A DNA stretch of 64,000 nucleotides from a virus (IMGVR_UViG_3300043419_000459:37471-101470), one strand, 5' to 3'. Shown: positions 2,196-63,337, counted from the stretch's first letter. Made by a program: numbers and translations. The notes: generated by a model not told the origin, from the letters alone.

Positions 2196-3419
2196 TTATC
2201 TAACTTGGTTTATTGTTACAATGATAGATGGTGATGCAGGAATATTTCCTGTTGCTGCAATATATTCATAAGTTGTATCACTCCTTTGTGATTGATATGC
2301 TATTTCAAAATAATCACCCACATTTGTCGTAGATTCCCATAAATTTAATGCTACTACTTTTTTAGTGTTTGAAGGAATTGTAACATATGTTGCACTATTT
2401 GGTATATTCACACCATTTCTTTTTAACCAAACTGCTAAATCGGCGGATTGTGAACCTTGAACTATTTGAATACTAAATTGAATATTATATAAAGCAGGTC
2501 TATCACAAACTATATGAGAACCACTTTGAATTGTAATTGCATTTACACCCAAAGTGTTATTAAATGTAAATGAACCACTTTGATTTGCACTTCCACTTTG
2601 AGTTTGTGTTGAATAAAATCCACCAGCTGCAAAAATAGCTGGTAATGCTGATGCATATGTTGTATGAAATAACTCACCCGTTGTTTGGTCATATGATACT
2701 AATGCTGAACCCGTATTTTGATAAAATAAACTACTACTTTCAATATAAAATGCTCCACTAATTTTATTTGTTCCTCTGAATGTAGTTGAACCACTTACAT
2801 CTAATGTTCCACTCATTATAGTATTTCCTAATAAAATATTGTTTCCGATTTGAGTTGTTGAACCACTTACTAAAAATGAACCCGTAATAGTTTGATTTCC
2901 TATGAATGTATTAGAACCGGTTGTTGCAAAATCTCCGTAGTTTTTAATTTGTGCAGATGAACTTAGAATACTTCTACCAGTTGTTTCGTAACTACCACTA
3001 ACAAAACCAAATGCAGTTATTTGTGCAGATGAACTTACTACACCATTAGTTGCATTTATTTGTCCATTGATACCACCAATTACATTAAGTGAACCGGTAA
3101 TATAAACCGAACCAGTAAATGTGTGAGTATCTCCTTCATCTAATCCAAAATTAGTAGATGCAGTAAAGTGATTTACCGATGATGTTGTTACTATGAATTG
3201 ATTTGCAATAATATCACCATCAATATTTAAATTTCCAAATATAATTTGCCCACCATCAAATATGTTTGAACCAGTTGTTGCAAATTGTCCCGCCGATATA
3301 TATCCCATCATACCATCCTCCTGCTTTATAACAACTTCATCAGTAGATTCTAATGTATAAATTTTTGTATATTCTTTTGCAGTTTCTTCTCTATGATATT
3401 GTTTTTCCGGATATGCCAT
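2196..3419 (-). CDS. Virion structural/decoration protein with TGS/SGS-rich repeats and a beta-rich (C1q/BclA-like) C-terminal domain
   Basis: Repeated FATTGSN/ITGS/VSSSAQI units; C-terminal YNIQFSIQ...W.KRNG..IPNS...PS.IVT.NQV; lies between capsid and neck genes. Confidence 0.6.
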   Translation of the reverse strand: MAYPEKQYHREETAKEYTKIYTLESTDEVVIKQEDGMMGYISAGQFATTGSNIFDGGQIIFGNLNIDGDIIANQFIVTTSSVNHFTASTNFGLDEGDTHTFTGSVYITGSLNVIGGINGQINATNGVVSSSAQITAFGFVSGSYETTGRSILSSSAQIKNYGDFATTGSNTFIGNQTITGSFLVSGSTTQIGNNILLGNTIMSGTLDVSGSTTFRGTNKISGAFYIESSSLFYQNTGSALVSYDQTTGELFHTTYASALPAIFAAGGFYSTQTQSGSANQSGSFTFNNTLGVNAITIQSGSHIVCDRPALYNIQFSIQIVQGSQSADLAVWLKRNGVNIPNSATYVTIPSNTKKVVALNLWESTTNVGDYFEIAYQSQRSDTTYEYIAATGNIPASPSIIVTINQVR

Positions 3420-3433
3420 TTGATGTAATTTCT

Positions 3434-3442
3434 AATAAATAT
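3434..3442 (-). promoter_or_regulatory. Putative late promoter variant ATATTTATT
   Basis: Immediately after the capsid terminator and 14 nt upstream of the ATG at 3419. Confidence 0.5.
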
Positions 3443-3449
3443 ACAAAAT

Positions 3450-3482: not shown

Positions 3483-3522
3483 CTATATTTTTAGTTTTTA
3501 ACTACTAAAATCTACTCAAAGA

Positions 3523-5136
3523 TTATAAAGTGTTTAAACCATCAACGATAATCTTACCGTAGAACTCTGGTCTTACGATTTTCTTAGCGTATCTAGTCAT
3601 AACACCTCTTCTTGGAGTGAAGTTAGTTGGGTCATAAACTAATGGAGTCATAATCAATGGTACATATGGTGCGTAAACTGCTCCTGTTTCGAAGAAGTTA
3701 GAACCTTTGAAGCCCATTAAGATAACGTTCTCTGTCATATATGGGTTTTTATAAACGTCATATCTGTTAGAGATTGAACCGATGTTAGTTACACCTGCTG
3801 CAAAAGATAAAGCGTCTTTACCTGGGTTAGCAGAGAAACCATTCATTGATTCTAAAATAGTTGCAACGTTTGGAGATACTACTACGAAGTTAGCACCACC
3901 TCTCATTGTTAACTGATGAATCTTGTTAGAAACTTTTTGTAATTTAATACCCAAAGTTTGATACCAAGTACTCTTTGTATAAGCTGATGCTGCCGCTGCT
4001 GATGAATCAATTGAGAATCCGTTTCCGTTCCAATCGTATCCTACTTTAGAAGACCAGTATTCAGTTGTGAAAGCATTTTGTTGTAACATTTCTAAGATTT
4101 CTAAGTCGATTTCTAAAGAGATGTACTCAGACAACATTTGAGTTAACTCAGCTTCAGCGTCTACACTATGGTATGCGTTTAAGTCTTGAGCTAATTCTGG
4201 AGTCCAAATTGCTTTTAATTTTCTTGTCTTAGCAACAATTGGTTCAGATTTCAATTCTAATTCGATTTCTGGAATTGCTAAGTCAGAACCTCTATCTTCA
4301 AAATCACCTCTTGAGATATCAGTTGGTTGTGCGTGGTATGCTAAAGATACACCAACATTCGCTAAGTTTGATAAACCTGTTGCAGCTACTACGAACTCAA
4401 CATTTGAACCATTCTTAGTTGTGTATTGAGGGAAATATCCAGTTACAGAACCAGTCAATAAAGTTGGTTCGAAAGCTCTTACACCATTGAAATCAGCGTC
4501 AGCTGGTAATGCAACTACAACTTTCTTCAAAGTGTTACCTGCAAAAGATGCAGAAACTGAACCTGAAGATAAATCGTAATCAATATCTGCTAAAGATGCA
4601 GAAGCAAAAGTTGCAGTAATTGCTGCAGTTTTGTTATTGATTGTGTATCCAAATCTACCTGCACCATATAAACCACCTTCTGCTACTTGAGTAGAACCTA
4701 ATTTGTTACCTGCTGGAGATAAAGAATCTTTACCAAATTCACCACCATTACCGAATAATGAATTGTTTTGGAAAGACGGATTACCTGCTACATCGGTACC
4801 ATATTTAAAGTCCATATAGAAGATAAGACCTGAAGGTAGGTTCATTGGTTGTACAGAAACGAATTCTTTAGAAGCAATGCTTCCGAATACTCTTCTTACC
4901 AATGGTAACGCTACACCAGCCCACTCTTCAGAACCTGCAGATGTACCTGTTCTTGTAGCTTCATCTAATAATTGTTTTGCTTGGTTTTCTAACATTACTG
5001 CCATACCATGCTTTGCTGTTTCAGAACCTGCGTTCTCTAACAAGCCTGTTTTTTCCCACTTAGCTTTCAAACCTCTTGTTTGCTCAAGCATTACTGATTG
5101 AGGGTTTGCGCCAGTCATAATTTGTTTTAAGTCCAT
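3523..5136 (-). CDS. gp23: Major capsid protein (T4 gp23-like)
   Basis: PLVRR, VQPM..PSGLIF, AKTRKLKA.WT.ELAQDL.AYH..DAEAEL...L..EI..EI, YAPYVPL, F.P..G.MTRY motifs. Confidence 0.97.
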   Translation of the reverse strand: MDLKQIMTGANPQSVMLEQTRGLKAKWEKTGLLENAGSETAKHGMAVMLENQAKQLLDEATRTGTSAGSEEWAGVALPLVRRVFGSIASKEFVSVQPMNLPSGLIFYMDFKYGTDVAGNPSFQNNSLFGNGGEFGKDSLSPAGNKLGSTQVAEGGLYGAGRFGYTINNKTAAITATFASASLADIDYDLSSGSVSASFAGNTLKKVVVALPADADFNGVRAFEPTLLTGSVTGYFPQYTTKNGSNVEFVVAATGLSNLANVGVSLAYHAQPTDISRGDFEDRGSDLAIPEIELELKSEPIVAKTRKLKAIWTPELAQDLNAYHSVDAEAELTQMLSEYISLEIDLEILEMLQQNAFTTEYWSSKVGYDWNGNGFSIDSSAAAASAYTKSTWYQTLGIKLQKVSNKIHQLTMRGGANFVVVSPNVATILESMNGFSANPGKDALSFAAGVTNIGSISNRYDVYKNPYMTENVILMGFKGSNFFETGAVYAPYVPLIMTPLVYDPTNFTPRRGVMTRYAKKIVRPEFYGKIIVDGLNTL

Positions 5137-5159: not shown

Positions 5160-6371
5160 TTATTTAATAATACCTGCTAATTTCTTAAATCTGTCGGAGA
5201 AATTTGTAGATTCAGCAATTACTTGCTTAGCTGCTGCAGGCTTAGTTGATTTTGTTACTTTGCTTGCAATACCTTCAGAAATAGATTTTTTAGTAGATTT
5301 GTTAGATGTGTATTTGAAATTCTCTGCTAATGTAGAGTATACCAATTTCACTTCTCTAACTGAATTTGTTCTATCTAAAGTTTCAATCACTTTCACTTTT
5401 TGTTCGTTAGTCATGTTGTGTGCTCTAAATAATTTGTTTGCGAATAATAACTTAGCGTTTAATAAGTTTACTTCGTTGATAGTTTTTTGAAGAGATTTGA
5501 TAGTTTTGTAAGCTTCGTTAAGTTCTTTTTCTTTTTCTTCCTTATCTTCTTCTTCTTTAACTACATCTTCATCATCTTTCATGTCCTTTTCCATTTCACG
5601 AAGAATTTCTTCTAAGTCGATTACATCGTCTTTTTTCTCATCATCAGCTTCTTCGTTAGTAGCTTCTTTTTCCTTATCGGTTTCGTCAGCTTCTTCGTTT
5701 TTAGCTTCTTTTTCATCATCACCATCTTCAGCTTCATACATAGATGATTCTTCTTCGTCAGAATCTTCACCTTCTAATTGAGCTTCTAATTCTCTGATGA
5801 TTGCTTCTAAGTCCATATCATCTTTCGACTCTTCGTCATCAGAATCCATATCCATAGAATCTTCAGAATCCATATCCATGTCATCCATGTCCATTTCTTC
5901 GTCATCTCCCATTTCTTCTTCAGAATCTTCTCCTTCTAATTCTGCCAATCTAGCTTTCAATTCTGCAATTTCTGCATCTTTGTCATCTTTTTTGTCAGCA
6001 AAAGGATTTTCTTCTTCAGAAATGTCTGCTACTTTCTTATAGTCAGTACCAGCTTGTTCAGGTTTACCACTATCTTGCTTTACACCAACTGATAAATCAG
6101 TCATTGCATCTAAGTTTGGTTGTGCACCTGGAGTCTCAGCGTATCCTGCGTCTACTTTAGACCCGATACCTGTTGAATCTAACTCTTCATTTTTCATTTC
6201 ATCATCTTTAACTTCTTGTTCTTCTGCTTCTGCTCTCATTTTTTGAGACAAAATAGATTGAAGTCTAGGAGTGAAAGCTTCTTCAAGAGCGATTTTTGCG
6301 TTTGCTAAAGCTGTTTCTTTAACTGCTTTGGCATCAGCGATTGCTTCTTTCAATAATTTTGAATTTGCCAT
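5160..6371 (-). CDS. Prohead scaffold/core protein (T4 gp22-like)
   Basis: Highly acidic coiled-coil protein directly upstream of the major capsid gene; C-terminal RFKKLAGI. Confidence 0.8.
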   Translation of the reverse strand: MANSKLLKEAIADAKAVKETALANAKIALEEAFTPRLQSILSQKMRAEAEEQEVKDDEMKNEELDSTGIGSKVDAGYAETPGAQPNLDAMTDLSVGVKQDSGKPEQAGTDYKKVADISEEENPFADKKDDKDAEIAELKARLAELEGEDSEEEMGDDEEMDMDDMDMDSEDSMDMDSDDEESKDDMDLEAIIRELEAQLEGEDSDEEESSMYEAEDGDDEKEAKNEEADETDKEKEATNEEADDEKKDDVIDLEEILREMEKDMKDDEDVVKEEEDKEEKEKELNEAYKTIKSLQKTINEVNLLNAKLLFANKLFRAHNMTNEQKVKVIETLDRTNSVREVKLVYSTLAENFKYTSNKSTKKSISEGIASKVTKSTKPAAAKQVIAESTNFSDRFKKLAGIIK

Positions 6372-7805: not shown

Positions 7806-8660
7806 TTATACTCCACAAGGGTCAACTGAGATTATTTCACCTCTACTACCACTTACTTCAAATTTAATTGAACCATCTCCATCTAATCTATACCAACCAT
7901 CGATTGCAGGATTCCATGCATCTGAATTTTGATATAATCTATTACCAACTTCTATTGCCGAACCACTTGCAATATATCGGTCTACTGTATAGTTACTAGC
8001 ACATATATTAGTTTGAAGTAGTTCGTATGCTACGTTTATCATAGTATGATTACCATTTGTAATATCAAAACTCCAATTTCTTGAATTAAGTACAAAAAGT
8101 GAATCTCTTCCTATTTCGCCGGGTGTCGAATTAGTTCCACCATGAATTTCTACATATCCATCTTCCACACTACCACTAGCTAATTCTAAAAGAATGTTAT
8201 CAACTGTGGTTTGAGTAAAAGCACAATTGGAAACTATTACTTCATTTCCATCAAATCCTATTGGTTGTGTTCTAGATATTATTAATTCGGTTAATTGGGT
8301 ATTACCACTAAAATCAATTGTAGTTAATAAAGGTAAGTTAGTTATATCTACCGAACCTGTTAAATTGCAATCATCAAAATCTATAAATTCCAACGATGTA
8401 CAATCTGATAAATCAGGGAATCCTGCTGAAAAATTACTATCACTAACACGAAGTGTTTGTAATGAGGTACATCCACTTACATTAATAGATGTTAAACTAT
8501 CGGTACCAGTTCCGGGTATATCGTTACGGTCTACATCAATAAGAGTAAGTGATGACATTCCAGAAAAATCAACAGATGTTAAACTATTGTAATCTGCTTG
8601 AAAACTTTGTATATTTGTTAGGTTTTGTAAACCTGTAAATGAAGTTATTGTTGCTCCCAT
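7806..8660 (-). CDS. Leucine-rich-repeat protein
   Basis: LxxLxxL-type repeats (LTSVDFSGMSSLTLID, LTSINVSGCTSLQTL, LSDCTSLEFID, ITNLPLLTTIDFSGN). Confidence 0.75.
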   Translation of the reverse strand: MGATITSFTGLQNLTNIQSFQADYNSLTSVDFSGMSSLTLIDVDRNDIPGTGTDSLTSINVSGCTSLQTLRVSDSNFSAGFPDLSDCTSLEFIDFDDCNLTGSVDITNLPLLTTIDFSGNTQLTELIISRTQPIGFDGNEVIVSNCAFTQTTVDNILLELASGSVEDGYVEIHGGTNSTPGEIGRDSLFVLNSRNWSFDITNGNHTMINVAYELLQTNICASNYTVDRYIASGSAIEVGNRLYQNSDAWNPAIDGWYRLDGDGSIKFEVSGSRGEIISVDPCGV

Positions 8661-18074: not shown

Positions 18075-21000
18075 TTATTCATAAAAAATACCCAATATTT
18101 GATTTAAGGGTGCAAATGAACCGGTTAGTTTATATGTTTTTCCATTATAAAAAAACACCAATCCTTCGGTTGCAACTATTTTATCTATACCACCCAACGT
18201 ATTTAATCTAGATAGTTCTTGTTTTAATTTTTGAATTTTAGATGTGTCTCCACCATTTCTAACTTGTGATGCAACTGAATTTAATTTTTCTTTCATAGAC
18301 CTAATTGCTTTATCAGGATGAATAGTTAATACTGAACTTACAAATTCTAAAACATCTGCACCTACTCCCAAAAATAATTCTTCAAATGGTCTAATATTGT
18401 CTTTTTGTTGCTTTATAACATTTATTTTATCTTGTGTAATTGCCCATTTTTGTAAGTCCGGATTTGAAATAGTATTTAATCTAAATGTTTTATCTCCAAA
18501 TGCCCATCTTCTAATCAATGATTCTTTTGTAAGTTTGTCAACTTTTATTGGACTATTTGATGTAATCCACCAATCCCACCAACTTTGATGATAATCCGCA
18601 ACATTATCGGAATCTTTTAATCCAAATTCACTCTGTAATCTATTTAACTTAGATAGATATTTACCTTGCTTAGAACTTAAATTATCATTTTTAGGTATAC
18701 TTGTAATCGGAGGGCCTTGTATTGTGTATTTGGATTGAATATCTGCATTTACTTGTTTAATCATTCCTGCTAATATATTTTCAGCACCATCCACCTGCCC
18801 CACTGCAACACCGCTTTCGTTATACTGAATACAATTATGAAAAACCAATAAAGCCTGACCATATGGAATTACATTTACTGATGTTGGCCATATTACTTCA
18901 ATATTCATAAAATTTTTACCTTCTCCAAAAATCTTTTCTCTTTGTTTTTGAGATAAAGATGATATTGCTGCTGATAAATCTTTCATTGCGTAGTTGTATG
19001 CATCTGTTAATCCACCTCTTCCGGCAAATTTAGATGCAACACCTTCAATTCCCAATGCATTTGCTCCTGCATTTTGTAAGTGTCCTTTGTTTCTTGCCGC
19101 AATTAATCTACCATTTTTCCAACTTATTGCTAAAGCTTGTCCATCTGTTTTTTCTCTAACTACTCCCAGTTCTCCATTAAGTGCTTTTGTAATTATATTT
19201 TTTAAATCACCAAAAGTCAAATCCATATCATCAAATGGATGAGACATATGTCCGTATGCACCACCTTCTAATAATAAATTTTCATTTAAGTTGGGTTGAA
19301 TATTTAACTCCTTTTCCATTTGGGTTATTTCATCATACCCCATATTACGAAGTGCTCTTGCAACTGCGTTTGGATTTGCTGGCATATTTGCTCTACCAAA
19401 AAGATATACATTTATTCTTTTTCTAAAGGTTGCATTTCTATATAATTTTATGATATTCATAAAATGGACATCTTTATTACCCATTTCATCTATTTTTCTA
19501 AATGTAGTTGCCTGTTTACCATTTATAGTTGGCATCCCATAAGAGTCTTTTCCAATGTCTTTAATCGTAACTTTTTTGTTTTTAAATTTACCCATTAAAA
19601 CTTCATCACCTTTATCAACATCAACACTAACATCTTCATTATAAATTTGTTTGTTGATTCTACCATACTCCCTCATTAAGATTCCCGCAACAGCATGTGC
19701 TTGGTTTTCAATTGGAGAACCATCTGCACCATCTTTCATTGGGTTTCTAACCAATCCCATCTCATCTTGTTTCCTATGAACCATCTCATGTGCAATAGTT
19801 CTTAAAATATCCGCAGTCAATCTATTTTCCGTTGCTACATATATTTCTTTTGTAATTGGGTCAAATCCACCTAATGAAGATTTTACATTACCATATTCTT
19901 TACCAGCTACTAAACTTATCTTTGGATTTTCTTTTAATTTTAATCTTTTGGTTGCAAATTCTACAAAGTGTTGAATTGATTGTTGTTTTGATTCGGAAAT
20001 ATTTTCTTTTATCAAATCCGCTGCATCACTCTTTGGTTTATTCTTTTTATAACTTTCTATTGATTTGAGAAGTTGTTCGTCTGATAATTTATAGGTTTTC
20101 ATCTTTTCGATTACTTTTCCAATAAATTTAGAAGCAAATTTACTATTATTATTTGGCTCATTTCCTTCTTTAAGAATCTCTAATAAACCCAATGTTGCAG
20201 TTGATAAACCTGCACCAACTCCTGCAGCTTGTCCTGCACCCATTCCCATTGCTTCAAGAGATGCATGTTTTGCAATATCTTTAGCAAGATGAACGCCGAA
20301 TCCGGCTGCTCCGTGTGTAAACGCACCGGCTCCACCGGCTGCTGCGGCTGCTCCGACACTAGATGCACCTGCCCCCGCTGCAGCCGCTTTAATTGCTCCA
20401 ACACCTGCACCACCCAATGCCATAGAACCCAATATTAATCCCATATCAATTGCAAAATGGGTCATATCTTTTTTTTGTTTTTTGCTTTCTTTCCAAGAAG
20501 CTTCAAACAATTGTTTTTCTTCATCTGATGCGTATTGTGATACTTTTGGTCTATGTTCTCCCACCTTATTACCAGTTGGTTTACCATGTGAATCTACTTC
20601 ATCGGTTTCAACATATTCGTATTCTGGATTACCACCACGACCAACTTCTGCAAATTCACTCCAATGTCTACGTTTTCCATCTTTATCTTTTACACTACCA
20701 ATTTTACCAGTAGTTGCAATTGATGTCAAACCATCCATAGTTCCTCCAACCATTTCTTTTTTATGTACGAACCAATTTTTTAAACCTTTGCCGAAGTTTT
20801 TAACACCATTAACTACATTGTCAATCATACCCTTTCTTTCGGGTGATTGAGGATTATTATGGGAATCTATGATATCATTATCTTCCGGAGACATTTCTTT
20901 TCTAGCTTTGTCTAATGCCTCTTTAGTTTGTGCAATTTTTTTATCTTCAGGGGACATTTCTGCAGATGATTTTAATTCTGTTCCGCTCAATTTTTGTTCC

Positions 21001-22061
21001 GGTGGTATTTGTTGTGTTTCCTCTCCGGATTTATTTTGTGTAGATTTTCCTTTTGCAGTATCTATTTTACCCTGTGTGGTTGCTCCTTTATTAACTGGTT
21101 GACCAGGTTGAGATGGTTTGGGTTCATTTACAGGTGCATCCGATGGGCCCTTTGCCATCTTTTTTTGTTTTTCTGCTTCCGCTTCTGCGGGTGTCAATGC
21201 TCTTATATCATCACCATCCGATTTATGAGTTGCTGGTTGGTCTTTGCTTTTTGCATAATATCCACCACCCAAATGTACCAACCCCATCTTTTTTGCATTA
21301 GATTCTTCTGCAAAATATTGTTTAGTAAATTCTTGAAATAATTCTTCCGTAACTACTTGATTTAACAATTCTGCAATTGGGTCATATGGGTTTAATTCAT
21401 ATGCACTAACCAATTCCGTTACCGAACCGCTTGGTGCACCATTTATGTATCCTCCAGGTAAATTCAATCCAACTCCTATTCCTCCTGGAAATCCTTCATT
21501 TAATTTGGTTGTTATCATTTTGAAAATATCTTTATCGAATTTTGGATATGCTTTAAGAAAGAACTTTTTAGCTTTTTCTTTATCATTACTTCCCAGTCCA
21601 TTTCTTACATCGGTACCACTAATTGGATTTGCTTCTGCAGGGATTGGATATGTATAACCAATTTCATCATAACCATATCCGGCTTTACCTCTATATGGTT
21701 TGAAATATTTACCTTGTAATCTCGATGCATCCTTTTCACCTACTGCAGCAATATATGCAATAGTTTGGCCATCATATTGTTTTAATATTTCAACAGGTCT
21801 ATATGGATTGTTTACTTTTACAAATTTAGAAGAAGGAACTCCAAACATTTTGGTTGCAATTTCTTTCTTTTCTTTAAATGAAAAAGGAGACTTATCGGAT
21901 GATGTATCGTTTGATGTTGCAATATAAACATTTGCAGAACCAAATTTATCTACTAATCTTTGATATGCATCGTGGTGTCCTCTATGGAATGGTTGAAATC
22001 TACCAGCGTATACAACAACTTCACCTTCTATAATTGGTTTATTTACTTCGTTTAAATTCAT
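18075..22061 (-). CDS. Multidomain protein: cytidylyltransferase-like + Gly/Ala hydrophobic segment + zincin (HExxH) + ligase-like nucleotidyltransferase domain
   Basis: GRFQPFHRGH and ISGTDVR; TIAHEMVH...E; EGGAYGHMSHPFD...EKTDG...EG.VF...YKLTG. Confidence 0.75.
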   Translation of the reverse strand: MNLNEVNKPIIEGEVVVYAGRFQPFHRGHHDAYQRLVDKFGSANVYIATSNDTSSDKSPFSFKEKKEIATKMFGVPSSKFVKVNNPYRPVEILKQYDGQTIAYIAAVGEKDASRLQGKYFKPYRGKAGYGYDEIGYTYPIPAEANPISGTDVRNGLGSNDKEKAKKFFLKAYPKFDKDIFKMITTKLNEGFPGGIGVGLNLPGGYINGAPSGSVTELVSAYELNPYDPIAELLNQVVTEELFQEFTKQYFAEESNAKKMGLVHLGGGYYAKSKDQPATHKSDGDDIRALTPAEAEAEKQKKMAKGPSDAPVNEPKPSQPGQPVNKGATTQGKIDTAKGKSTQNKSGEETQQIPPEQKLSGTELKSSAEMSPEDKKIAQTKEALDKARKEMSPEDNDIIDSHNNPQSPERKGMIDNVVNGVKNFGKGLKNWFVHKKEMVGGTMDGLTSIATTGKIGSVKDKDGKRRHWSEFAEVGRGGNPEYEYVETDEVDSHGKPTGNKVGEHRPKVSQYASDEEKQLFEASWKESKKQKKDMTHFAIDMGLILGSMALGGAGVGAIKAAAAGAGASSVGAAAAAGGAGAFTHGAAGFGVHLAKDIAKHASLEAMGMGAGQAAGVGAGLSTATLGLLEILKEGNEPNNNSKFASKFIGKVIEKMKTYKLSDEQLLKSIESYKKNKPKSDAADLIKENISESKQQSIQHFVEFATKRLKLKENPKISLVAGKEYGNVKSSLGGFDPITKEIYVATENRLTADILRTIAHEMVHRKQDEMGLVRNPMKDGADGSPIENQAHAVAGILMREYGRINKQIYNEDVSVDVDKGDEVLMGKFKNKKVTIKDIGKDSYGMPTINGKQATTFRKIDEMGNKDVHFMNIIKLYRNATFRKRINVYLFGRANMPANPNAVARALRNMGYDEITQMEKELNIQPNLNENLLLEGGAYGHMSHPFDDMDLTFGDLKNIITKALNGELGVVREKTDGQALAISWKNGRLIAARNKGHLQNAGANALGIEGVASKFAGRGGLTDAYNYAMKDLSAAISSLSQKQREKIFGEGKNFMNIEVIWPTSVNVIPYGQALLVFHNCIQYNESGVAVGQVDGAENILAGMIKQVNADIQSKYTIQGPPITSIPKNDNLSSKQGKYLSKLNRLQSEFGLKDSDNVADYHQSWWDWWITSNSPIKVDKLTKESLIRRWAFGDKTFRLNTISNPDLQKWAITQDKINVIKQQKDNIRPFEELFLGVGADVLEFVSSVLTIHPDKAIRSMKEKLNSVASQVRNGGDTSKIQKLKQELSRLNTLGGIDKIVATEGLVFFYNGKTYKLTGSFAPLNQILGIFYE

Positions 22062-23622: not shown

Positions 23623-23627
23623 AATAA

Positions 23628-25162: not shown

Positions 25163-25167
25163 ATAAT

Positions 25168-43269: not shown

Positions 43270-44240
43270 ATTATTTCTTTTATTTTTTTAACCCATTTTT
43301 GTTTATTGGTATATTTTGTAAGACCTTTTCTTAATTTGCAAAATTCTAAATTTACTTTTGTAAAATCTTCTTCCAATATTTGCAAATATATTTTATTGAA
43401 TTCTTTTTTAGTTTTTGCTCTATATTTGTAATCAATATGTTTCATCCAATCTGTATGTATAATTGGAACTTTACCATTATCAACTGCATCAAAAATTGCA
43501 TAACCAAATGGTTCTTTTGTATAACATCCATGAAATATTTGAAAATTACTTTCAAAAAATTTATTATGGAATGTATAATTAAATTCCATAAACCTATGAT
43601 AATCCGAATTTGTATTTGAACCTTCTAACATTCGTTTATAATCATATTTGTTTGAAAATATAATTGATGGTATGTAATCTAAATAATGTGCGTTTTTTCT
43701 TGTTTCACATCTAGCAGCGTATCCAATTTTATTAGTTATAATTCCTGTAAATGGTTTATTTTGTTTCCATTCATAGTAGTTTGTAATGGTTTTTGTTTTT
43801 GGATATTCTTTATGTATTGTATCATCTTCATAACCTATCCAAACTATATTGTCCGAATTATCTAATATTTGTTTTTGCCAATCCCAATCTACTTTTGTCA
43901 TTATATTTTCATAATCAGAATTTAATCCTAACATATCAGGAATAAAAGCATGAACAAATGTAAGATAAGTTTTGTGTAAATAATTTTTAATTATAGGATT
44001 TGGTTTGTAAGAATGGTGTAAGAAAATAATTTTATCACATTCTTGTAATATTCTATCAACTTCTTTTTCATTTTCGTAAGTGTAGATTGCACCGATTTCT
44101 TTAACCAATGGCCTGCCATCAATTATTATTTTGTAATCTTCTTTTACTAATGGCAAAATATTTTCTATAAAGTTATTGCACCATAAATCCGCACCACCAA
44201 TAACATTTTTTCCGTAACCTGTTGTAATGAATACTATCAT
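43266..44240 (-). CDS. GT-B glycosyltransferase (GT4-like)
   Basis: N-terminal GGAD; AR...RKN; EPFGY...DA...G..PI. Confidence 0.7.
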   Translation of the reverse strand: MIVFITTGYGKNVIGGADLWCNNFIENILPLVKEDYKIIIDGRPLVKEIGAIYTYENEKEVDRILQECDKIIFLHHSYKPNPIIKNYLHKTYLTFVHAFIPDMLGLNSDYENIMTKVDWDWQKQILDNSDNIVWIGYEDDTIHKEYPKTKTITNYYEWKQNKPFTGIITNKIGYAARCETRKNAHYLDYIPSIIFSNKYDYKRMLEGSNTNSDYHRFMEFNYTFHNKFFESNFQIFHGCYTKEPFGYAIFDAVDNGKVPIIHTDWMKHIDYKYRAKTKKEFNKIYLQILEEDFTKVNLEFCKLRKGLTKYTNKQKWVKKIKEII

Positions 44241-49854: not shown

Positions 49855-50031
49855 ATGAAATACGCAATGTTACAAATTAAAAAAGAAACCCATGAACTTC
49901 TCAAAGAATATTGTGAAGAACACGGGTTCAAAATGGGTAGTCTTGTTGAAAATCTAATTAAGAAACATGTTGGTGTCTCAAAACCACAATCCAGTGTGTT
50001 GAAGGCTGATAAGGTCGTTCTTAGAAGTTAG
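49855..50031 (+). CDS. Ribbon-helix-helix DNA-binding protein (58 aa)
   Basis: Not in ORF track. MKYAMLQIKKETHELLKEYCEEHGFKMGSLVENLIKKHV...; beta-strand, helix, G-turn, helix pattern; the only credible plus-strand gene. Confidence 0.75.
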   Translation: MKYAMLQIKKETHELLKEYCEEHGFKMGSLVENLIKKHVGVSKPQSSVLKADKVVLRS

Positions 50032-50741
50032 ACTATCCCAGAATAAAAAGATACTATATTATATTTTATATTTTGATTTACTTTTTCAACTTCATGAAAT
50101 AAATTTAAATCACTATCCAATACTACAAAATTAGGAAATGTAGGATTTATTTTTATTTTATCATTATTCTTATTATACAAAATTAGGTGGCCACCATTTT
50201 CGTCATTCCAATCGTTGTTTAGAAAATATAAAAACACACAAATCCTATCAGCAGGTTTCCCATCATCGTGTAATTTTATTTCACAATCTTTATCATAAAA
50301 TTGTAATTTAACATTTTTCATATAAGATTTATAACTCTTATCTGAATAATATTTTTTAACAAAGTTTTCCTGAAAGTTGGATATAATTTCACCATTAATT
50401 AAATTATCTATTTCTTCATCCATAGAAGTTCCAAAAACCCAAGTTGGATAGAAGTCAGAATCCTGTATTTTTTTAATCATATATTCGTGCGACATTTGAT
50501 AGATAAAATCTGCAACATTTAAATCTCCATCTCTTTTTAAGAAATTTTCATAAACTATTTCTTCCATATAAGATAGATTTTTAAATTTATACCAATAATC
50601 ATATCTTGAAAATCGTTTGATATTTTTATTGTCTATTTTTGATTTTATATCTTTGAATTTTTCAAAATTAATTAAATCAGTATAGTTTTCTAAACTATCT
50701 AACAAATATCCCTGCTCTCTAAATGTTTTGATATCTATCAT
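50028..50741 (-). CDS. 2OG-Fe(II) oxygenase (prolyl-hydroxylase-like)
   Basis: H.D (LHDD), LYFLN..W....GG.L, FHEV. Confidence 0.8.
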   Translation of the reverse strand: MIDIKTFREQGYLLDSLENYTDLINFEKFKDIKSKIDNKNIKRFSRYDYWYKFKNLSYMEEIVYENFLKRDGDLNVADFIYQMSHEYMIKKIQDSDFYPTWVFGTSMDEEIDNLINGEIISNFQENFVKKYYSDKSYKSYMKNVKLQFYDKDCEIKLHDDGKPADRICVFLYFLNNDWNDENGGHLILYNKNNDKIKINPTFPNFVVLDSDLNLFHEVEKVNQNIKYNIVSFYSGIV

Positions 50742-50752: not shown

Positions 50753-53700
50753 TTAGAAGTCAATCTTACTAAATCCGTTTTCTTTTTTAATCTCAATCAA
50801 CCCGTCTACGATATCTCTCATTTGTTCTAAGTGAGAAATCATCCATATAAAATCAAATTGTGTTTTAAGATATTGCATCATCATAAATAGGGATGATAAG
50901 TTGTCTGCGTCTAATGTTCCAAATCCCTCATCTACTACTAAGAAGTTTGGACGAGGTAAATTACATACATTGATAAGTGCAACTCTAATAGCAAGTCCAC
51001 TAACAAATTTCTCCATACCACTGCACATTTCTAATGGCCATTCCTGGTCTTCATAAACAATTTTTGCATTGATAGATTTACCATCCATTTCCATTGTAAT
51101 ACCAAAATCTACAACCTGTCCTAAAATATTATTAATCTCACTTTCAATTACAGGTAAAGCCTTTGTAATCAATTCATATGGGATACCATCTCTCTTAACC
51201 GAATCTAAATAATAGGTGTATAATCGGTTCTTTTCCTCCAATTCCTTAACATTACTCATCTTCTCTTTAATACCATCTATATAAGTCTGTAATGATGAAA
51301 TAGACCCATTTGTATTGGAAATATCTTTACTCAATTTCTTAATTTGGATATTTAATACATCCACTTCACCTTCTATGAATTTAATCTGACCTTCTAACTT
51401 TTTATTGGATTGAATTGTATCTTCGTTTTCATAATATGTTTCAATATCTTCTTCTATTTTATCCAATTGTGTTTCTAACAACTCACCTTTAGTTTCTAAA
51501 CCTTTTAATTCTGCTTGTGCCTTTTCTATTAAGATTTTACCCTGGGTGTATTTCTTTTTTAATTCTTGTAATTCGTTATATTGTTCTTCAACCCCTTCCA
51601 TAGTATCCAATGTTTGTTGAATACCTACACAATCAATTAATGCATGTTTAACAACACTTGTCAATTCAGGTAATGCATCTTTTGCTCTCATTGCATCCTT
51701 AACAAACTCATTATCACAACAAAATTTACAATTTGGGTCGTACTCATGTTTATCCAAATATTTAATTTTTTCCTCTGCAGAATTTAAATGCAATTTTGCA
51801 GTATCATAAACTTTAGTAGACTCTGTTAAACTTTTTTGTTCCCTTTGATAATTTGAATATGCTGTTTCTACATCAACATCACCAAACATCTTCTTATCAT
51901 CTATTGATTGTGAAATTTCTGCAACTTTTTCTTCTAAAATTTCAATATTGTTTTCCTTTGTTCCAATTAGATTTGTATTGTTTTGAATATCATCAATCAA
52001 TCTTCTTTTCTTTGACTCTAAAGTTGGTAAGTCTAAATTATTACCAATAGGAACTATTTGTCTACTTTTTTCTAAGATATGTGTACTCTGTGCATCTCTC
52101 TCATTTGTTAATTCATCCAATTCCTCTTGTAATTGTTTCAATTCACCTTTCTTATCTTTTAACTCATTTGATTTATCGGCAAGTTCAGTTGTAAAGTCCG
52201 TTTTCTTAAAGTTTTTGATTAATACTGAAACTTCTTTGATATCTTCAACCGCAGTATCGTATAACTTGTCAAAAACATTCAATCCCATAAATTGGGCAAG
52301 TAAGTCTTTTCTCTCACTTTGGGATTTATCAATGAATATAGAGTTATTACCCTGTAAAGACAATGCAGTCAATACGAAATCTTCATATTTGCCAACATAT
52401 TGTTCAATTACTGAATTTGTATCTCTTCTCTCTGTTCCGTTTAATGAAACATTTTCACCACCATCTTCATACCAGAAATTAACATCTACTTTTACATTTT
52501 TACCTTTGTTAATTGTCTTTGCAGTTCTTTCTATATGATAATCCATTCCATCGATTTGGAAATGTAAATAACATCTAAAGTCAGTCTTACGATTGTTTAG
52601 AATATTTGCAGCTTTGAATGCTCTACTACTTTTATCATATAAACAAAATGAAATAGCATCGAATATAGAAGATTTACCTTGTGCATTTGGTGCAAACAAT
52701 CCCATCAACCCCCCCAATTTAGAGAAATCAATTTTATTATCTTCACCATAACTAAACATATTAGAAAACTCAAATCTAACCGGTTTCCACATAATGTTTC
52801 TTAAAGTATCTTCATGTACAATTCTACTATTTACATCTCTATTAATCTTCTCCAACTCTGCCAAATCTTTCTTATCAACAAATGGCATCATTCTTTCTAC
52901 ATACTCATTGATTAAAGAGTTTTGATAATTGATATCAGAAATATCTTCAAAGTCTAATTTATTTTGTCTATCTCCTGTTTTCTTTTTTGATAATGAGTCC
53001 GTTCTAATAATTGTAAAGTCCTCAACACCATATTTCATTTTGATTTCTGCAATTACTTTTTTAGTATCGGCAGTATCGGTGTTTGATAATCTTACTCTTA
53101 AACGAGGATGTTTTGGCATATCATTTACAACTGGAACTTTACCATTGTCGATATCCATTGTATAATAACCATAATCATTTGGAATATCAATTTCTTCATA
53201 AGTCATTGTATCTAAATCCCATGCTAAAAATCCATGTCTACCCAATGTTTCACCAAAATTTTGTTGAACCAATGAACCGGCATAAACTACCTTACAACCT
53301 TTCGGACTAATCATTTCTTGACGCTTATGAATATCACCCAATAAGGCTAAATCAAAACCATCAAATATATCCGTTGTAAAATGTCTACTACTTACTACAT
53401 AACCAATATCAGTTTGAGAATTATCAACAGGTCCGTGGAATAACGCAATCTTTTTATTACCAAATAGTTTATCAGCGGTAATCCAATTGTCCTTATTATC
53501 CAAAATTGAAAATACTGAAAAATCAACACCACCAATTGAATAAACCTGTGTATCTTTTAAGTAATAAAAGTTTTCTAATTCTAATGCATCTACAATAGGA
53601 GTAAGAACATCCATTCTATCCATATTGTTCATATTACAATCGTGATTTCCGGTAATAAGAATTGTAGGACAAGTTTTAGCACACTCTTTGAATAACCAAC

Positions 53701-53896
53701 TTATTTCGTTCACTAATTCTGGACTCATTTCCAACTTCGCATGTGCAATATCACCTGCTAAATATATAATTGCGTCTTCGGTTCCTCTTTTACGGATTTC
53801 CTCAAACATCAATTCAAATACCTTTCTATACTCTTTGTGTCTTTTCACATTACGGATATGAACATCCGCAATATGATAAATCTTCTTTAAACTCAT
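50753..53896 (-). CDS. Fused Mre11/SbcD nuclease - Rad50/SbcC ATPase (T4 gp47+gp46 equivalent)
   Basis: DVH, GD, GNHD, HG, GDIH phosphoesterase motifs; NAQGKSS Walker A, CKFC hook, SGME signature, VVDEG Walker B, ISH. Confidence 0.92.
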   Translation of the reverse strand: MSLKKIYHIADVHIRNVKRHKEYRKVFELMFEEIRKRGTEDAIIYLAGDIAHAKLEMSPELVNEISWLFKECAKTCPTILITGNHDCNMNNMDRMDVLTPIVDALELENFYYLKDTQVYSIGGVDFSVFSILDNKDNWITADKLFGNKKIALFHGPVDNSQTDIGYVVSSRHFTTDIFDGFDLALLGDIHKRQEMISPKGCKVVYAGSLVQQNFGETLGRHGFLAWDLDTMTYEEIDIPNDYGYYTMDIDNGKVPVVNDMPKHPRLRVRLSNTDTADTKKVIAEIKMKYGVEDFTIIRTDSLSKKKTGDRQNKLDFEDISDINYQNSLINEYVERMMPFVDKKDLAELEKINRDVNSRIVHEDTLRNIMWKPVRFEFSNMFSYGEDNKIDFSKLGGLMGLFAPNAQGKSSIFDAISFCLYDKSSRAFKAANILNNRKTDFRCYLHFQIDGMDYHIERTAKTINKGKNVKVDVNFWYEDGGENVSLNGTERRDTNSVIEQYVGKYEDFVLTALSLQGNNSIFIDKSQSERKDLLAQFMGLNVFDKLYDTAVEDIKEVSVLIKNFKKTDFTTELADKSNELKDKKGELKQLQEELDELTNERDAQSTHILEKSRQIVPIGNNLDLPTLESKKRRLIDDIQNNTNLIGTKENNIEILEEKVAEISQSIDDKKMFGDVDVETAYSNYQREQKSLTESTKVYDTAKLHLNSAEEKIKYLDKHEYDPNCKFCCDNEFVKDAMRAKDALPELTSVVKHALIDCVGIQQTLDTMEGVEEQYNELQELKKKYTQGKILIEKAQAELKGLETKGELLETQLDKIEEDIETYYENEDTIQSNKKLEGQIKFIEGEVDVLNIQIKKLSKDISNTNGSISSLQTYIDGIKEKMSNVKELEEKNRLYTYYLDSVKRDGIPYELITKALPVIESEINNILGQVVDFGITMEMDGKSINAKIVYEDQEWPLEMCSGMEKFVSGLAIRVALINVCNLPRPNFLVVDEGFGTLDADNLSSLFMMMQYLKTQFDFIWMISHLEQMRDIVDGLIEIKKENGFSKIDF

Positions 53897-54874: not shown

Positions 54875-55300
54875 TTATGGTCTATTTTCCTCTAAAAACC
54901 ACTCTTCTGGGATGAATTTGTCCGAATACTTAAATCCGTTCTTTTCACACCACATTCCGTAGGTAGTTTTAGAGTTTTTGCTGATTTTGTTCTTTGAATT
55001 CGAAAATACGAAACGAATGTCCAAATTGGGGTTTTGTTCTTTTACTAATTGGTGTTTCTTACGGTCTGCAGCAACAAATCTTCCCTTTGTTTCTACTCTA
55101 ATCCCATTAGGTAGTTTGAAATCTGGATGATAATTGTGAGTTGATGCTGGTATGATATACTCAACCTTTTCAGTTTCATATTCAACCGGAATACCTTTAC
55201 TTTCTATTTGAATTGAAATGGATTCCTCTAAACCGGACTTAAATCCATACTTTTTAGCAACCCACTTTGGATTGTTCTTTTTTGTAACTTTTTTGGCCAT
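54875..55300 (-). CDS. Holliday junction resolvase, T7 endonuclease I-like
   Basis: SGLE, Y.PDF.LPNGI.VETKG.F...DR.KH, DIRFVF, SKTTY..WCEK.GF. Confidence 0.92.
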   Translation of the reverse strand: MAKKVTKKNNPKWVAKKYGFKSGLEESISIQIESKGIPVEYETEKVEYIIPASTHNYHPDFKLPNGIRVETKGRFVAADRKKHQLVKEQNPNLDIRFVFSNSKNKISKNSKTTYGMWCEKNGFKYSDKFIPEEWFLEENRP

Positions 55301-61700: not shown

Positions 61701-63337
61701 TAATCACCTATTAAATTAGAAGACGATGATACAGGCGCATTCAATATTATGTCATCCAATGATTCATATCCGGTAGACTTTCCTACAACAAAATCAACAT
61801 CTATACTAAAATTCGGCCCTTTTATTGGTGGGCAATTTATTCCATCTTGTTGAGATAATACAACCGTTTCAATCAAAGGATTGGTCAATAACTTAGTAAT
61901 CCAAAAAGTTGAATTTTCTGTTATATTTGCGGGAAGTGGTGTATACAATTTTAATATCAAAGATTCAACCTCTTTGGTAATAACCGTATTTCCCAACTCA
62001 TCCGTTGTCTTATCCGATAAAGTAAAATTATCGTCTTCCCAAGATGAAACTATTATTTGTTCATCATTACCAAAGTTTGCAAGATGTGTTAAATATTTAC
62101 TTTCTTTTTCTGGTTCTGTGAATTTTAAATTTTCAACAAAAGCATCAAATAGAGTTTTTTTAATTATATCTTCATCTAACTTTATACTTGATAATAATAA
62201 TGTCGTTTTTATCTCATATTCATTTCCAATCAATTCAACGTTACCATTCCTATTATATGGTTTAAAAATAAGAGTTACATTATCACTACCATTCCAATTT
62301 GTAAATTTAGTAGATAAGTCTCTTAAATTAATTTTAAGTTTACCATTTGCTGATAAAGATTTCACTAATGGAATTCTACTTTTATCTTTTGCAATCAAAT
62401 CAACATCTATTGATGAAACTGCAAAGGAATTCCATTCTACATCATATTCCAAATTTAAATCAGAAAATGAGGGGATATCAATGGTGTCGGGAAATGTAAT
62501 TTGTGTAATTGATGGAAAATCGTTTACACTATTAAAATTAATAAGTAATTCAATTCTATCACCTGTACCATATAAATCACTTGTTGGTACAATTATTATT
62601 TTTTTACTACCAAATACTCCTAAAAAATCCTTTTTAAAAGATACATCAACAAATCCTAATGTTGCATTTACTCTAATTGGTGTATTTGAATTTAAATAAA
62701 AATCAACAAAGTCAGTATTAGATGTACTAAATGGTATAGTAACAATGGAATCGGTATCCGAATCTTTTACATTATAATCATATTTTCCATTGGCAATTGA
62801 TATGATTGGTTTATCTACCAATATTTGTTTCTCAACAGCAACAGCCAAAGCAAATCCACCGGTTAATAATTCAGTTGCAGGTACTTCTATATACGAATCC
62901 CCCACATTCCATTTGGAAAAATCTTTTGAATTTTTTTCTGCAACTTGTCTATTTGCATAAAATATTTTTAAAATTTTGTAATTTGATGGTAATACACCTT
63001 CTATGTAAAATTTTAAAGTTGAATTGGTAAGATTTGATTTTAATATTTGTTTACCATCGGTATTATAATCTGCCAATGTTATACTATCATTTATTATAAC
63101 ACTATCAGTTGTACCTACTTCATATTTTAATTTTAATAAATCACCCAATTCATTTTGTAAGTTGGATGTAAACAAAATTTCATAATTAACCGAATAATCG
63201 GCTATAACCGGTTGACTTACCGGTTCACCTGGTTGTGATATTGGTGGCACAATTTGTATTGGTTCGATTGGGTTGAAAACGATATCTCCACCACCCCCAC
63301 CAAAATCAAAAATTATATCTTCTACTTCTTCGGCCAT
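58706..63337 (-). CDS. Large baseplate wedge-like protein with LamG-like domain
   Basis: L.K.KGT.R.V..L...YG baseplate motif; GSLDEFRLW LamG-like motif; LPARV. Confidence 0.65.
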   Translation of the reverse strand: MAEEVEDIIFDFGGGGGDIVFNPIEPIQIVPPISQPGEPVSQPVIADYSVNYEILFTSNLQNELGDLLKLKYEVGTTDSVIINDSITLADYNTDGKQILKSNLTNSTLKFYIEGVLPSNYKILKIFYANRQVAEKNSKDFSKWNVGDSYIEVPATELLTGGFALAVAVEKQILVDKPIISIANGKYDYNVKDSDTDSIVTIPFSTSNTDFVDFYLNSNTPIRVNATLGFVDVSFKKDFLGVFGSKKIIIVPTSDLYGTGDRIELLINFNSVNDFPSITQITFPDTIDIPSFSDLNLEYDVEWNSFAVSSIDVDLIAKDKSRIPLVKSLSANGKLKINLRDLSTKFTNWNGSDNVTLIFKPYNRNGNVELIGNEYEIKTTLLLSSIKLDEDIIKKTLFDAFVENLKFTEPEKESKYLTHLANFGNDEQIIVSSWEDDNFTLSDKTTDELGNTVITKEVESLILKLYTPLPANITENSTFWITKLLTNPLIETVVLSQQDGINCPPIKGPNFSIDVDFVVGKSTGYESLDDIILNAPVSSSSNLIGDYLSSSLVNTDDLNIQYVSDSEYLWDNFVHFSSAKERVDNFVYKVQLIEVYENSIKSAQTASWSSTLESAKEIERQTIKKEQLIQGFDGFEKFLYTSSSTSWPYTGSDRLNSTDSIVEVWYNDIIEFAESYDINNANYVLNNIPQYIVNNTENQSLLLFFSMIGQHFDNIYFYTKSIEKSRGLGYKSANGISDKLLFDVLKSFNWDAKNLASDSQLWNYVFGMDSDGNIKETNPAKKRTYEVWRRIVNNLPYLLKHKGTRRGVYALMACYGIPSSNLSILEFGGPEVTDTSKSKFEFDNITTALKFYGQNSGSIKLEWKNTERNRKPDTIEFFIKPEYSGQFNIISGSGWGINISGSTNSKFGKVVFNYSGSHEITSSLLPIFNDSFFGVEVSRTSGSVSSSFELNVRQSEKERTIFQESVSASILNVSASWDGGNYIYIGSGSNGYSGSLDEFRLWSTPLNKEKFYEHVSFPEMINGNDVYASTDDLFFRLDFEYPKNLAVSSSLLNVDTNIYFSSSLYRNDLESGSIISGTLIFSENPSASYSASAIGFPTLTTYPYQFEAIDRTVVLEIPDIGSTRYSTNKVRFESQELISDLSSKSRATKKSFDQSPTDSNRVGLFFSPTKELNIDIAKSLGGLNLDNYIGDPSDRYRSNYKRLDELRNYYFKRFDNRDIYAYINLIKLYEKSMFDDIKKMLPARVKATTGLLIEPHILERSKIAQKKPIGDEYQKDVTIHYEDTTILSSENLQYEVKINSDFSENLIGENNQYQSIVDANLSENLIATSYQHGGLIENTDTTIVNAESYQKEVNIDAGLDESTITTEIDLGIETYGQTTYETIGFGIYAQNGNAIRTYFDKDNKRVSERIRVQLITEQKERIVTKFAITASVNGLGDPRGGYVSDIQTYTETKLNIQPFSGSVVPVVKDNIIAVKPVDGYLPTHYKNTSDLTRGLQNSFFKGSKNTAATTLDGTPPVETFVSNPNTLTVNRTGRNTSEPILEVE

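Follow-up and report, generated by a model that had tools for sequence, protein, structure and literature searches.

A Ser/Thr-Gly/Ala-Ser motif on exposed virion proteins of an aquatic, T4-related phage clade and its possible role in phage-encoded protein modification

Do the outer proteins of some large phages carry a short acceptor sequence for a sugar coat made by the phage itself? This question is raised by a 64,000-nucleotide stretch of viral DNA (IMGVR_UViG_3300043419_000459:37471-101470; the window in the following means this whole stretch). In an initial annotation, positions 2196 to 63337 were read as a candidate virion O-glycosylation system, in which Ser/Thr-Gly-Ser tripeptides ([ST]GS) concentrated in outer structural proteins serve as acceptor sequon for the glycosyltransferases of an adjacent 22-kb cluster. 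The practical outcome of the present analysis is a correction: the motif, in a slightly wider form, is a real, lineage-specific tag in fibre, baseplate, sheath-periphery and capsid-insertion proteins, where it occupies loops and hairpin tips that face outwards, but it cannot be assigned to the adjacent cluster. The window forms the right-hand end (64 kb) of one virus contig of 101,470 bp, whose completeness is estimated at 54%; it has a GC content of about 30% and carries every large open reading frame (ORF) on the minus strand. Encoded are a capsid protein of the T4 gp23 family, a T4-like portal and a T4-type large terminase. By capsid protein, the nearest isolates are Flavobacterium phage immuto and Microcystis phage Mel-JY01 (each about 54% identity), with 54% identity to the 484-kb uncultured phage LR756508 and 39% to Rhodothermus phage RM378; two complete close relatives in IMG/VR (G001 and G005) measure 202 and 245 kb. 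The phage is large, aquatic and T4-related and belongs to a clade with proven or predicted Bacteroidota hosts.

The [ST]GS counts originally given for seven flagged proteins are exact in every case (Table 1). Together, these proteins hold 49 sites versus 9.8 expected, and the remaining 46 proteins of the window hold 4 versus 5.5. No site occurs in the portal, the terminase, the ORFs at 5160-6371 and 50753-53896 or the other non-structural ORFs, and a 1328-amino-acid (aa) protein has 2. For the window as a whole, 53 sites were observed versus 15.3 ± 3.8 in within-protein shuffles, none of 5000 shuffles reaching 53, and six proteins reach significance on their own. Among tripeptides with real counts, none is more over-represented in the six motif-rich proteins than SGS (34 versus 4.7). 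Shuffling inside stretches of 15 or 30 residues gave expectations of 16.6 and 16.2 with a maximum of 33; on the whole contig, 147 observed sites compare with 52-55 after shuffling inside stretches of 10-50 residues, i.e. a 2.7- to 2.8-fold excess (about 3.2-fold for the window). Since local shuffles leave the excess in place, Ser/Gly-rich patches do not account for it, and composition was rejected as the cause both for whole proteins and locally, 2.7- to 3.5-fold being retained. The proposed enrichment hence persists after both kinds of correction. It is, in fact, stronger and broader than first seen, as the 37 kb of the contig upstream of the window encode fibre proteins with 38, 18, 12, 7, 6, 5 and 4 sites. 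The motif is mostly preceded by V, I, F or L and followed by L, V, I, A, S or T, and many sites lie inside repeat modules common to several fibres, such as NGVVSGSSQI and TGSNxFxGxQxI[ST]GS.

The specificity of the motif was assessed from all x-G-y tripeptides in six genomes of the clade in comparison with control phages. SGS was found 512 times versus 162 expected (z = 27) and TGS 290 times versus 131, with ratios of 1.08 and 1.09, respectively, in the controls. TGT, SGN, NGS, SGD, SGA, AGS and GGS are all present at about 1.0 in the clade. A generic preference for glycine turns could be discarded: the turn tripeptides DGT, DGS and NGT are equally frequent in clade and controls, and [ST][GA]S alone differs. 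Likewise, SGT does not belong to the motif, as its apparent excess stems from two collagen-like proteins and falls to 1.11 once these are removed. With collagen-like proteins left out, the excess amounts to 2.87-fold for [ST]GS and 2.02-fold for [ST]AS, S-x-T and T-x-T reach about 1.1 for x = G, and a charged residue in the middle is rarer than expected in the clade, the controls being flat. Moreover, SGS is replaced at homologous positions of 54 aligned sheath proteins by SAS, SSS, TAS and TSS. The motif is therefore better written [ST]-[GA]-S (with G preferred over A), the last residue being strictly Ser. This retention of the outer Ser/Thr and Ser, despite exchange of the central Gly, resembles the behaviour of a recognition site rather than that of a glycine turn.

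For the distribution among phages, whole genomes were compared with one ORF caller and one expectation from own composition throughout. The present contig contains 147 sites versus 47.2 expected (3.1-fold, or 3.7-fold without a collagen-like fibre; eight proteins with P<1e-3). Similar values were obtained for the two relatives that share the 22-kb cluster, G005 (176 versus 60.1; 2.9-fold) and G001 (175 versus 63.9; 2.7-fold), as well as for RM378 (53 versus 19.8; 2.7-fold; two proteins with P<1e-3), immuto (117 versus 46.8; 2.5-fold; six proteins) and Mel-JY01 (134 versus 55.4; 2.4- to 2.7-fold; seven proteins). No excess and no significant protein were found in nine control phages, five of them with Bacteroidota hosts, which gave ratios of 0.7-1.7 (T4, S-PM2, T5, SPO1, crAss001, Bacteroides phage B40-8, Flavobacterium phage 11b, Cellulophaga phage phi38:1 and Tenacibaculum phage PTm1). 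These flat controls exclude a general trait of phage fibres or of Bacteroidota phages. In 80 close IMG/VR relatives, 10 kb on each side of one baseplate gene together contain 1540 sites versus 297 expected. The [ST]GS excess is thus a property of one phage clade.

Within virion proteins, the sites favour the periphery. The 753-aa tail sheath protein carries six of them here, seven in immuto, four in Mel-JY01, one in RM378 and none in T4, almost none being aligned with one another. Among 150 diverse sheath relatives (34-70% identity) from a search of 1.8 billion representative proteins, 618 sites were counted versus 158 expected; they are concentrated at query residues 100-200 and 350-500, and the conserved C-terminal core is nearly free. 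An AlphaFold model of the sheath (predicted local distance difference test score, pLDDT, 86; predicted template modelling score, pTM, 0.87) matches the sheath structures of T4 and others and places the six sites at two beta-hairpin tips, in three loops and at one helix N-cap, all within residues 101-472. Because of this range, and because minimal sheaths of about 350 aa align to only 270-290 columns of the protein, we infer that the modelled sites lie in extra outer domains. The model of the 409-aa baseplate protein was too poor for use (pLDDT 50; 36 close homologues).

In general, site positions turn over between orthologues with density being kept, and a minority are shared in the large baseplate-associated protein ("wedge") and the 409-aa protein. 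In the latter, two sites (S238-G-S240 and G353-S354) are conserved across three genomes. The immuto and Mel-JY01 orthologues of the 391-aa baseplate-region protein have five sites each, mostly elsewhere in the sequence, and those of the wedge have 5 and 11, respectively, in a protein whose sites stand in non-repetitive contexts. Both capsid sites (residues 191 and 228) fall into a clade-specific insertion region, and T4 gp23 has none. In the 407-aa fibre-like protein, many sites lie in hexapeptide-like repeats (TGSVYI/TGSLNV, ITGSFLVSGSTT), with modules shared with upstream fibres; its C-terminal 140 aa resemble C1q/cerebellin-like domains of other phages, and it is a possible head fibre or decoration protein. 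The leucine-rich-repeat (LRR) protein is encoded by an accessory gene that has no homologue in G001, G005, immuto, Mel-JY01 or RM378. PHROGs yielded nothing informative for the motif-rich proteins or the sugar cluster. In line with the initial annotation, the motif is confined to peripheral virion proteins and found in several unrelated folds; its excess also holds once composition is corrected for.

Table 1. Positions of motif-bearing proteins, of the sugar cluster with its assigned genes, and of the fibre cassette upstream of the window. Positions refer to the window unless a contig is named; expected [ST]GS numbers are given in brackets.
Feature	Position	Strand	Sites or match
Fibre-like protein, 407 aa, adjoining the major capsid gene	2196-3419	-	12 sites (1.14), P<2e-4
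Major capsid protein, T4 gp23 family	3523-5136	-	2 sites; Pfam Gp23 E=9.4e-76
Leucine-rich-repeat protein	7806-8660	-	4 sites (0.67), P=0.003; Pfam LRR_4
Fibre or distal tail protein, 1838 aa	44237-49753	-	12 sites (4.4), P=0.001
Baseplate-region protein, 391 aa	55547-56722	-	4 sites (0.34), P=4e-4
Clade-specific baseplate protein, 409 aa	56796-58025	-	5 sites (0.78), P=8e-4
Large baseplate-associated protein ("wedge"), 1543 aa	58706-63337	-	10 sites (1.79), P<2e-4
Cluster for nucleotide-sugar synthesis and glycosyl transfer, 22 soluble proteins	22075-44240	-	
E1-beta/transketolase-pyrimidine-like half	23628-24170		Pfam Transket_pyr 8e-4
NAD-dependent sugar epimerase/dehydratase, one of three	24170-25186	-	
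Further epimerase/dehydratase	27201-28202		
Second radical SAM enzyme	31033-32238		Pfam Radical_SAM
Thiamine-diphosphate E1-alpha-like half	32240-32878	-	Pfam E1_dh 3.1e-17
RmlC-like 3,5-epimerase	32878-33414		Pfam dTDP_sugar_isom 4.3e-32
Further epimerase/dehydratase	33416-34387		
Twitch-domain radical SAM enzyme	35143-36552	-	NCBIfam NF033640 E=2.4e-105, above cut-off
GT7-family glycosyltransferase fused to LamG/ConA-like lectin domain	36545-37963	-	GT7N 1.4e-19; GT7C 1.6e-19; Laminin_G_3 6.5e-9
Second GT7-family glycosyltransferase, paralogue of the first	37963-39258	-	GT7N 4e-21; GT7C 1.3e-15
GT2-like glycosyltransferase, weak match	39523-40371	-	Pfam Glyco_tranf_2_4 24.2 bits, below cut-off
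TibC/BAHT homologue, 376 aa, about 13-15 kb upstream of the window	contig G000:C1:22337-23467	-	PDB 4RAP E=1.4e-52
GT4-type gene, 318 aa, directly upstream of the TibC homologue	contig 23457-24413	-	
Proline-free collagen-like fibre, 976 aa, directly upstream of the cassette, outside the window	contig G000:C1:24440-27370	-	

The most plausible function of this tag, to which we assign a probability of roughly 40%, would be that of an acceptor or recognition site for a phage-encoded modification of the virion in the cytoplasm, with O-glycosylation as the best candidate. O-glycosylation is preferred because the genomes of the clade are unusually rich in soluble glycosyltransferases. Among phage records, the family of the GT-B enzyme gp181 of immuto occurs in precisely those seven that make up the clade as delimited by capsid protein; G001 and G005 have it as well, and the PF00534 domain carried by this enzyme is found in none of ten control phages. 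The best PDB matches of gp181 are chlorovirus B736L and TreT, at E values of at least 1.6e-3. A second GT-B gene, of the gp180 family, adjoins gp181 in G001, G005, immuto and Mel-JY01 and is not present in RM378 or LR756508; the family of the small GT2 enzyme gp178 is represented in the same four genomes, weakly in RM378, and neither in LR756508 nor in the controls. On the contig under study these genes are missing, and they presumably lie in the missing half of the genome. When 208 ORFs of G005 were profiled, nine had homologues in G001, immuto, Mel-JY01 and RM378. Four of these nine are absent from the controls, namely two glycosyltransferases of the gp181/gp180/gp178 set and two structural proteins, which is suggestive support for glycosylation of the tag. 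In Mel-JY01, the gene of the gp181 family is split by an in-frame TGA (L009-L018, 83441-84932).

To our knowledge, virion glycosylation is known from very few phage systems, and no acceptor sequon has been defined for any tailed phage. In mycobacteriophages, glycosyltransferases encoded by the structural genes reportedly modify the phage's own virion proteins in the cytoplasm, with glycans said to be located at the C-termini of capsid and tail-tube subunits. The present candidate sites, by contrast, form an internal tripeptide that occurs throughout fibres, baseplate and sheath periphery; the enzymes come from other families, and the system is a prediction from sequence. A cytoplasmic modification of Ser-x-Ser repeats (SAS, SES, SVS) of a surface fibre is carried out by GtfA-GtfB, a GT4-type pair of Gram-positive cocci. 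The products of gp181 and gp180 also form an adjacent GT-B pair, although without a specific sequence relationship to GtfA-GtfB, so that the likeness is an analogy only. The general O-glycosylation of Bacteroidota likewise uses a three-residue Ser sequon, D-[ST]-[AILVMT], and about 65% of the sites described here are followed by A, I, L, V or T. Yet, the bacterial system is periplasmic, acts on exported proteins and requires Asp, whereas phage virion proteins are assembled in the cytoplasm and the phage motif has Gly or Ala where Asp would stand, a difference correctly pointed out in the initial annotation. Another lineage, the "Moraphages", is similar in having genomes of more than 200 kb, an aquatic origin and an RM378-related capsid; its predicted hosts are Flavobacteriia, and its description mentions no virion motif (PMC12619734). 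It probably overlaps with the present clade and possesses four core glycosyltransferase families of unknown role (PMC12619734).

Nearly as likely as a modification is that [ST]-[GA]-S represents an unmodified structural or biophysical feature of the surface, with small hydroxyl residues flanking Gly or Ala in the peripheral beta-hairpins, loops and fibre repeats of this lineage, serving folding, solubility or low stickiness, which spread through shared modules and inheritance while the glycosyltransferases serve other targets. This would agree with the location of the sites on hairpin tips and loops, with the many sites in repeat modules shared between fibres, and with the hydrophobic strand residues at their flanks. 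Several observations weigh against a modification. Some sites are ordinary structural consensus, such as the LRR-protein site at residue 101, which is part of the LRR consensus N-L-T-G-S-V, one wedge site within the LamG-type consensus GSLDEFRLW (G-S-L-D-E-F-R-L-W), and those in hexapeptide-like fibre repeats. All motif-bearing genomes belong to one clade, so the co-occurrence of motif and glycosyltransferases counts as a single evolutionary event, and no glycosyltransferase family tracks the motif cleanly or independently of phylogeny. In LR756508, the gp181 family is present, but the ratio for the structural region is only 1.7, with no significant protein and two sites in the wedge orthologue (120 of 484 kb sampled, at 80-200 kb). 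The clade-wide glycosyltransferase genes sit among replication and nucleotide-metabolism genes, which would also fit DNA glycosylation, and a TibC-type enzyme encoded upstream of the window is missing from G001, G005, immuto and RM378, all of which have the excess. Finally, the case for a sugar is not a chemical one but consists of gene neighbourhood and motif statistics. What an unmodified surface would explain less readily is that SGS and TGS stand out in the clade only, with DGT, DGS and NGT being equal in controls and clade, that the outer residues are kept through swaps of the middle one and the third position is Ser and not Thr, and that unrelated folds gained the excess independently of one another, in lineage-specific insertions. 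Besides its gp181 family, LR756508 carries capsid, wedge and baseplate orthologues and lacks gp180 and gp178; it is the most informative natural contrast found.

The neighbouring 22-kb region does, as initially annotated, encode sugar enzymes and glycosyltransferases and shares its orientation with the fibre gene, and the ATGA overlap of its first gene with the fibre stop codon (4 nt, at 44237-44240) is real. A match to the T4-type late promoter TATAAATA lies 44 nt upstream of the start of this fibre gene, which is not significant in AT-rich DNA; with 3 matches on the coding strand versus 11 on the other, TATAAATA is uninformative. Only a single [ST]GS site is found in the approximately 7,400 aa of the cluster. 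Its three epimerases match Pfam Epimerase with 2e-43, 1.3e-32 and 1e-34. NCBIfam does not name the sugar product, since the epimerase/dehydratase matches (GDP-fucose synthase, GalE and RmlB types) remain far below the equivalog cut-offs. The two E1-like halves, encoded 8 kb apart, match the alpha and beta chains of pyruvate dehydrogenase E1 in NCBIfam below threshold. This split E1-like enzyme and the two radical S-adenosylmethionine (SAM) enzymes suggest an unusual branched or modified sugar. For both GT7 enzymes, the two halves of the catalytic domain exceed the Pfam cut-offs (GT7N 70-75 bits, GT7C 57-70 bits). They are eukaryote-like (of the beta4GalT type): the best solved relative is beta4GalT7 (E=5.9e-32), the matches to beta4GalT7 and beta4GalT1 (E=6e-32 to 4e-27) cover the first ~150 residues, and a GT7 query found no match among 50,697 isolate phage records. 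Each of the nine long close relatives contains more than one GT7-like open frame. The GT2-like protein is kept in G001 and G005 at 61-70%. In addition, the cluster encodes a HAD phosphatase, a methyltransferase and several proteins without matches. Two adjacent paralogues with weak DUF6071 matches (25168-27201) have a related copy in a sugar module of the G005 replication region.

A further explanation, which we consider rather unlikely, is that the sugar genes are unrelated to virion proteins and that the cluster, the clade-wide glycosyltransferases or both serve to glycosylate phage DNA or to remodel the envelope of the host. Glycosylation of their own DNA is found in T4 and many other phages. 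The clade-wide glycosyltransferase genes adjoin genes for DNA polymerase, nuclease and ribonucleotide-reductase-like proteins, immuto has other DNA-modification genes, and viral glycosyltransferases are known to hypermodify DNA (Pyle et al. 2024, as cited in PMC12619734). However, the cluster lies inside the structural gene block and overlaps the fibre stop codon, an arrangement that suits late expression better, and the motif would be left unexplained. A role in the envelope is further disfavoured by the absence of any membrane component for the export of an envelope polysaccharide: a hydropathy scan revealed no polytopic membrane protein among the 22 cluster ORFs, and a Pfam scan of the cluster no Wzx/Wzy, ligase or priming-transferase family. 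A lipid-carrier polysaccharide pathway of the Wzx/Wzy or ABC type, as for O-antigen or capsule, was therefore rejected, and the transferases of the cluster must act on a soluble acceptor.

The reading of the initial annotation in its strict form, according to which the cluster's own glycosyltransferases recognize [ST]GS and start the glycan, is improbable. It has in its favour the shared orientation and stop-codon overlap with the fibre gene, the all-soluble set of proteins, several GT7 paralogues with a lectin-like domain, and somewhat higher [ST]GS ratios in genomes with the cluster (3.7, 2.7 and 2.9) than in those without it (2.5, 2.7 and 2.7), the difference being clearer for [ST]AS (2.2-2.5 versus 1.4-1.6). 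The cluster is syntenic in G001 and G005, at roughly 30-94% identity, and this synteny is limited to the close sub-clade; in immuto, Mel-JY01 and RM378, two weak epimerase matches are all that was found for its 22 proteins. These three phages keep a 2.5- to 2.7-fold excess, and the expected covariation of motif and cluster thus failed: the motif is independent of the 22-kb cluster. Moreover, GT7 enzymes generally extend sugars and are not known to start on protein, and the closest solved relative, beta4GalT7, acts on Xyl-O-Ser. As the cluster-less phages immuto, Mel-JY01 and RM378 carry other glycosyltransferases, glycosylation in general is still plausible.

Equally doubtful is that the tag serves as acceptor for a modification other than a sugar, e.g. 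phosphorylation or acylation, or as a docking site for an assembly chaperone. The same arguments from specificity and surface position would apply, but among the ORFs that five clade genomes have in common and controls lack, glycosyltransferases were the only modifying enzymes, with no kinase or other such enzyme. An origin as composition artefact or DNA-level signal (a polar oligonucleotide or recombination hotspot read as SGS) can practically be dismissed: although motif codons are biased to AGT-GGT-TCN, these proteins show the same preference for SG and GS dipeptides that are not part of the motif (AGT 72%, GGT 92%), which identifies it as a normal codon-pair bias, non-structural genes of that strand lack the motif, and the excess outlasts the local shuffles described above.

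That protein glycosylation in itself would fall within the repertoire of the phage is indicated by a predicted TibC/BAHT homologue among the most motif-rich fibre genes of the contig, upstream of the window. TibC works in the cytoplasm, where it attaches heptose to numerous serines in beta-helix loops of the TibA adhesin (PMC4358343; PMC8151025). Enzymes of its family, the bacterial autotransporter heptosyltransferases (BAHT), use ADP-heptose as donor and serine as acceptor. The alignment with 4RAP spans residues 19-368 of 376, and the N-terminal beta-barrel domain (Pfam TibC_1st) scores 33.2 bits versus a cut-off of 27. Of the residues assigned to catalysis (the base Asp-110) and sugar binding (Thr-226, Lys-230, Arg-286 and Trp-305) in TibC (PMC4358343), all are conserved except for Arg-286, which aligns with Val; hence, the donor sugar may differ. 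All four iron-finger cysteines (Cys-339, 342, 358 and 370) align with Cys. Judging from these matches, the ORF appears to be a true protein O-glycosyltransferase homologue. Among known systems, it comes closest to TibC-TibA and Aah-AIDA-I of E. coli, in which a soluble cytoplasmic enzyme attaches single sugars to inter-strand loop serines of a repetitive surface adhesin (PMC4358343; PMC8151025); modified serines of TibA stand in N-S-G-G-A-V and T-S-A-A-V contexts, a likeness in that Ser is followed by small residues and then a strand. Unlike in these systems, the neighbours of the homologue are phage fibres, with no autotransporter beta-helix nearby, and it adjoins a GT4-type gene and a collagen-like fibre.

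Some 447 residues of this fibre consist of Gly-X-Y repeats, X being mainly Thr or Val and Y mainly Ser or Asn, and its C-terminus carries an endosialidase-chaperone (Peptidase_S74) domain. The fibre tracks the cassette of GT4 and TibC-like genes, being present in both genomes that have it (this contig and Mel-JY01, where a similar fibre adjoins the cassette) and in none of 13 without. In Mel-JY01, the GT4 and TibC-like parts are fused into one 1227-aa protein. Beyond the motif-bearing relatives named above, the cassette is also absent from LR756508 and all controls. A TibC-like writer of the motif was consequently rejected: two complete close relatives, G001 and G005, have the full excess without it, and this enzyme did not shape the motif. 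Within the literature collection searched, no description of a phage TibC homologue or of the present motif was found.

Returning to O-glycosylation of the tag, virion proteins would be modified in the cytoplasm, before or during assembly, at [ST]-[GA]-S. The initiating enzyme, if there is one, may belong to the clade-wide gp181/gp180/gp178 set. Lineage-specific islands could then add or extend sugars, i.e. the 22-kb cluster with its GT7 paralogues and the GT4 and TibC-like cassette with its collagen-like fibre. It is a tentative and on balance unlikely proposition that the clade coats its particles by such a modular glycosylation, in which clade-wide glycosyltransferases read the sequon on exposed hairpin tips and swappable islands elaborate the glycan or serve special fibres; if true, this would be the first defined phage O-glycosylation sequon. 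In any case, a sharply defined motif, with a specificity like that of an enzyme site, labels the exposed surface throughout this clade. Members of the clade abound in aquatic metagenomes: the 409-aa baseplate protein has at least 495 relatives in IMG/VR, and the protein library contains 12,170 relatives of the sheath. A sugar coat, if present, could influence host recognition and the stability of the particle, as well as grazing, aggregation and the evasion of host defences. With immuto, RM378 and Mel-JY01, three cultured members make the question directly testable.

Some further features of these genomes deserve mention. Mel-JY01 (PP395634) has a GC content of 34% and closest relatives that infect Flavobacteria, with which its recorded Microcystis host fits oddly. 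The window encodes a T7-type endonuclease I (a Holliday junction resolvase; 54875-55300; Pfam Phage_endo_I E=1.9e-56) in an otherwise T4-related genome. The 1328-aa protein (18075-22061) has an N-terminal cytidylyltransferase-like domain and is homologous to a Mel-JY01 protein. At the corresponding position, immuto has a 2.7-kb gene annotated as nicotinamide mononucleotide adenylyltransferase (NadR), and no sequence match was found between the two. A multidomain enzyme of the NAD-salvage type is more likely than the polyprotein initially assumed. Finally, a gene for a 2-oxoglutarate (2OG)-Fe(II) oxygenase lies at 50028-50741, between a Mre11-Rad50-like gene and the gene of the 1838-aa fibre, and its product could hydroxylate a virion protein or a sugar.

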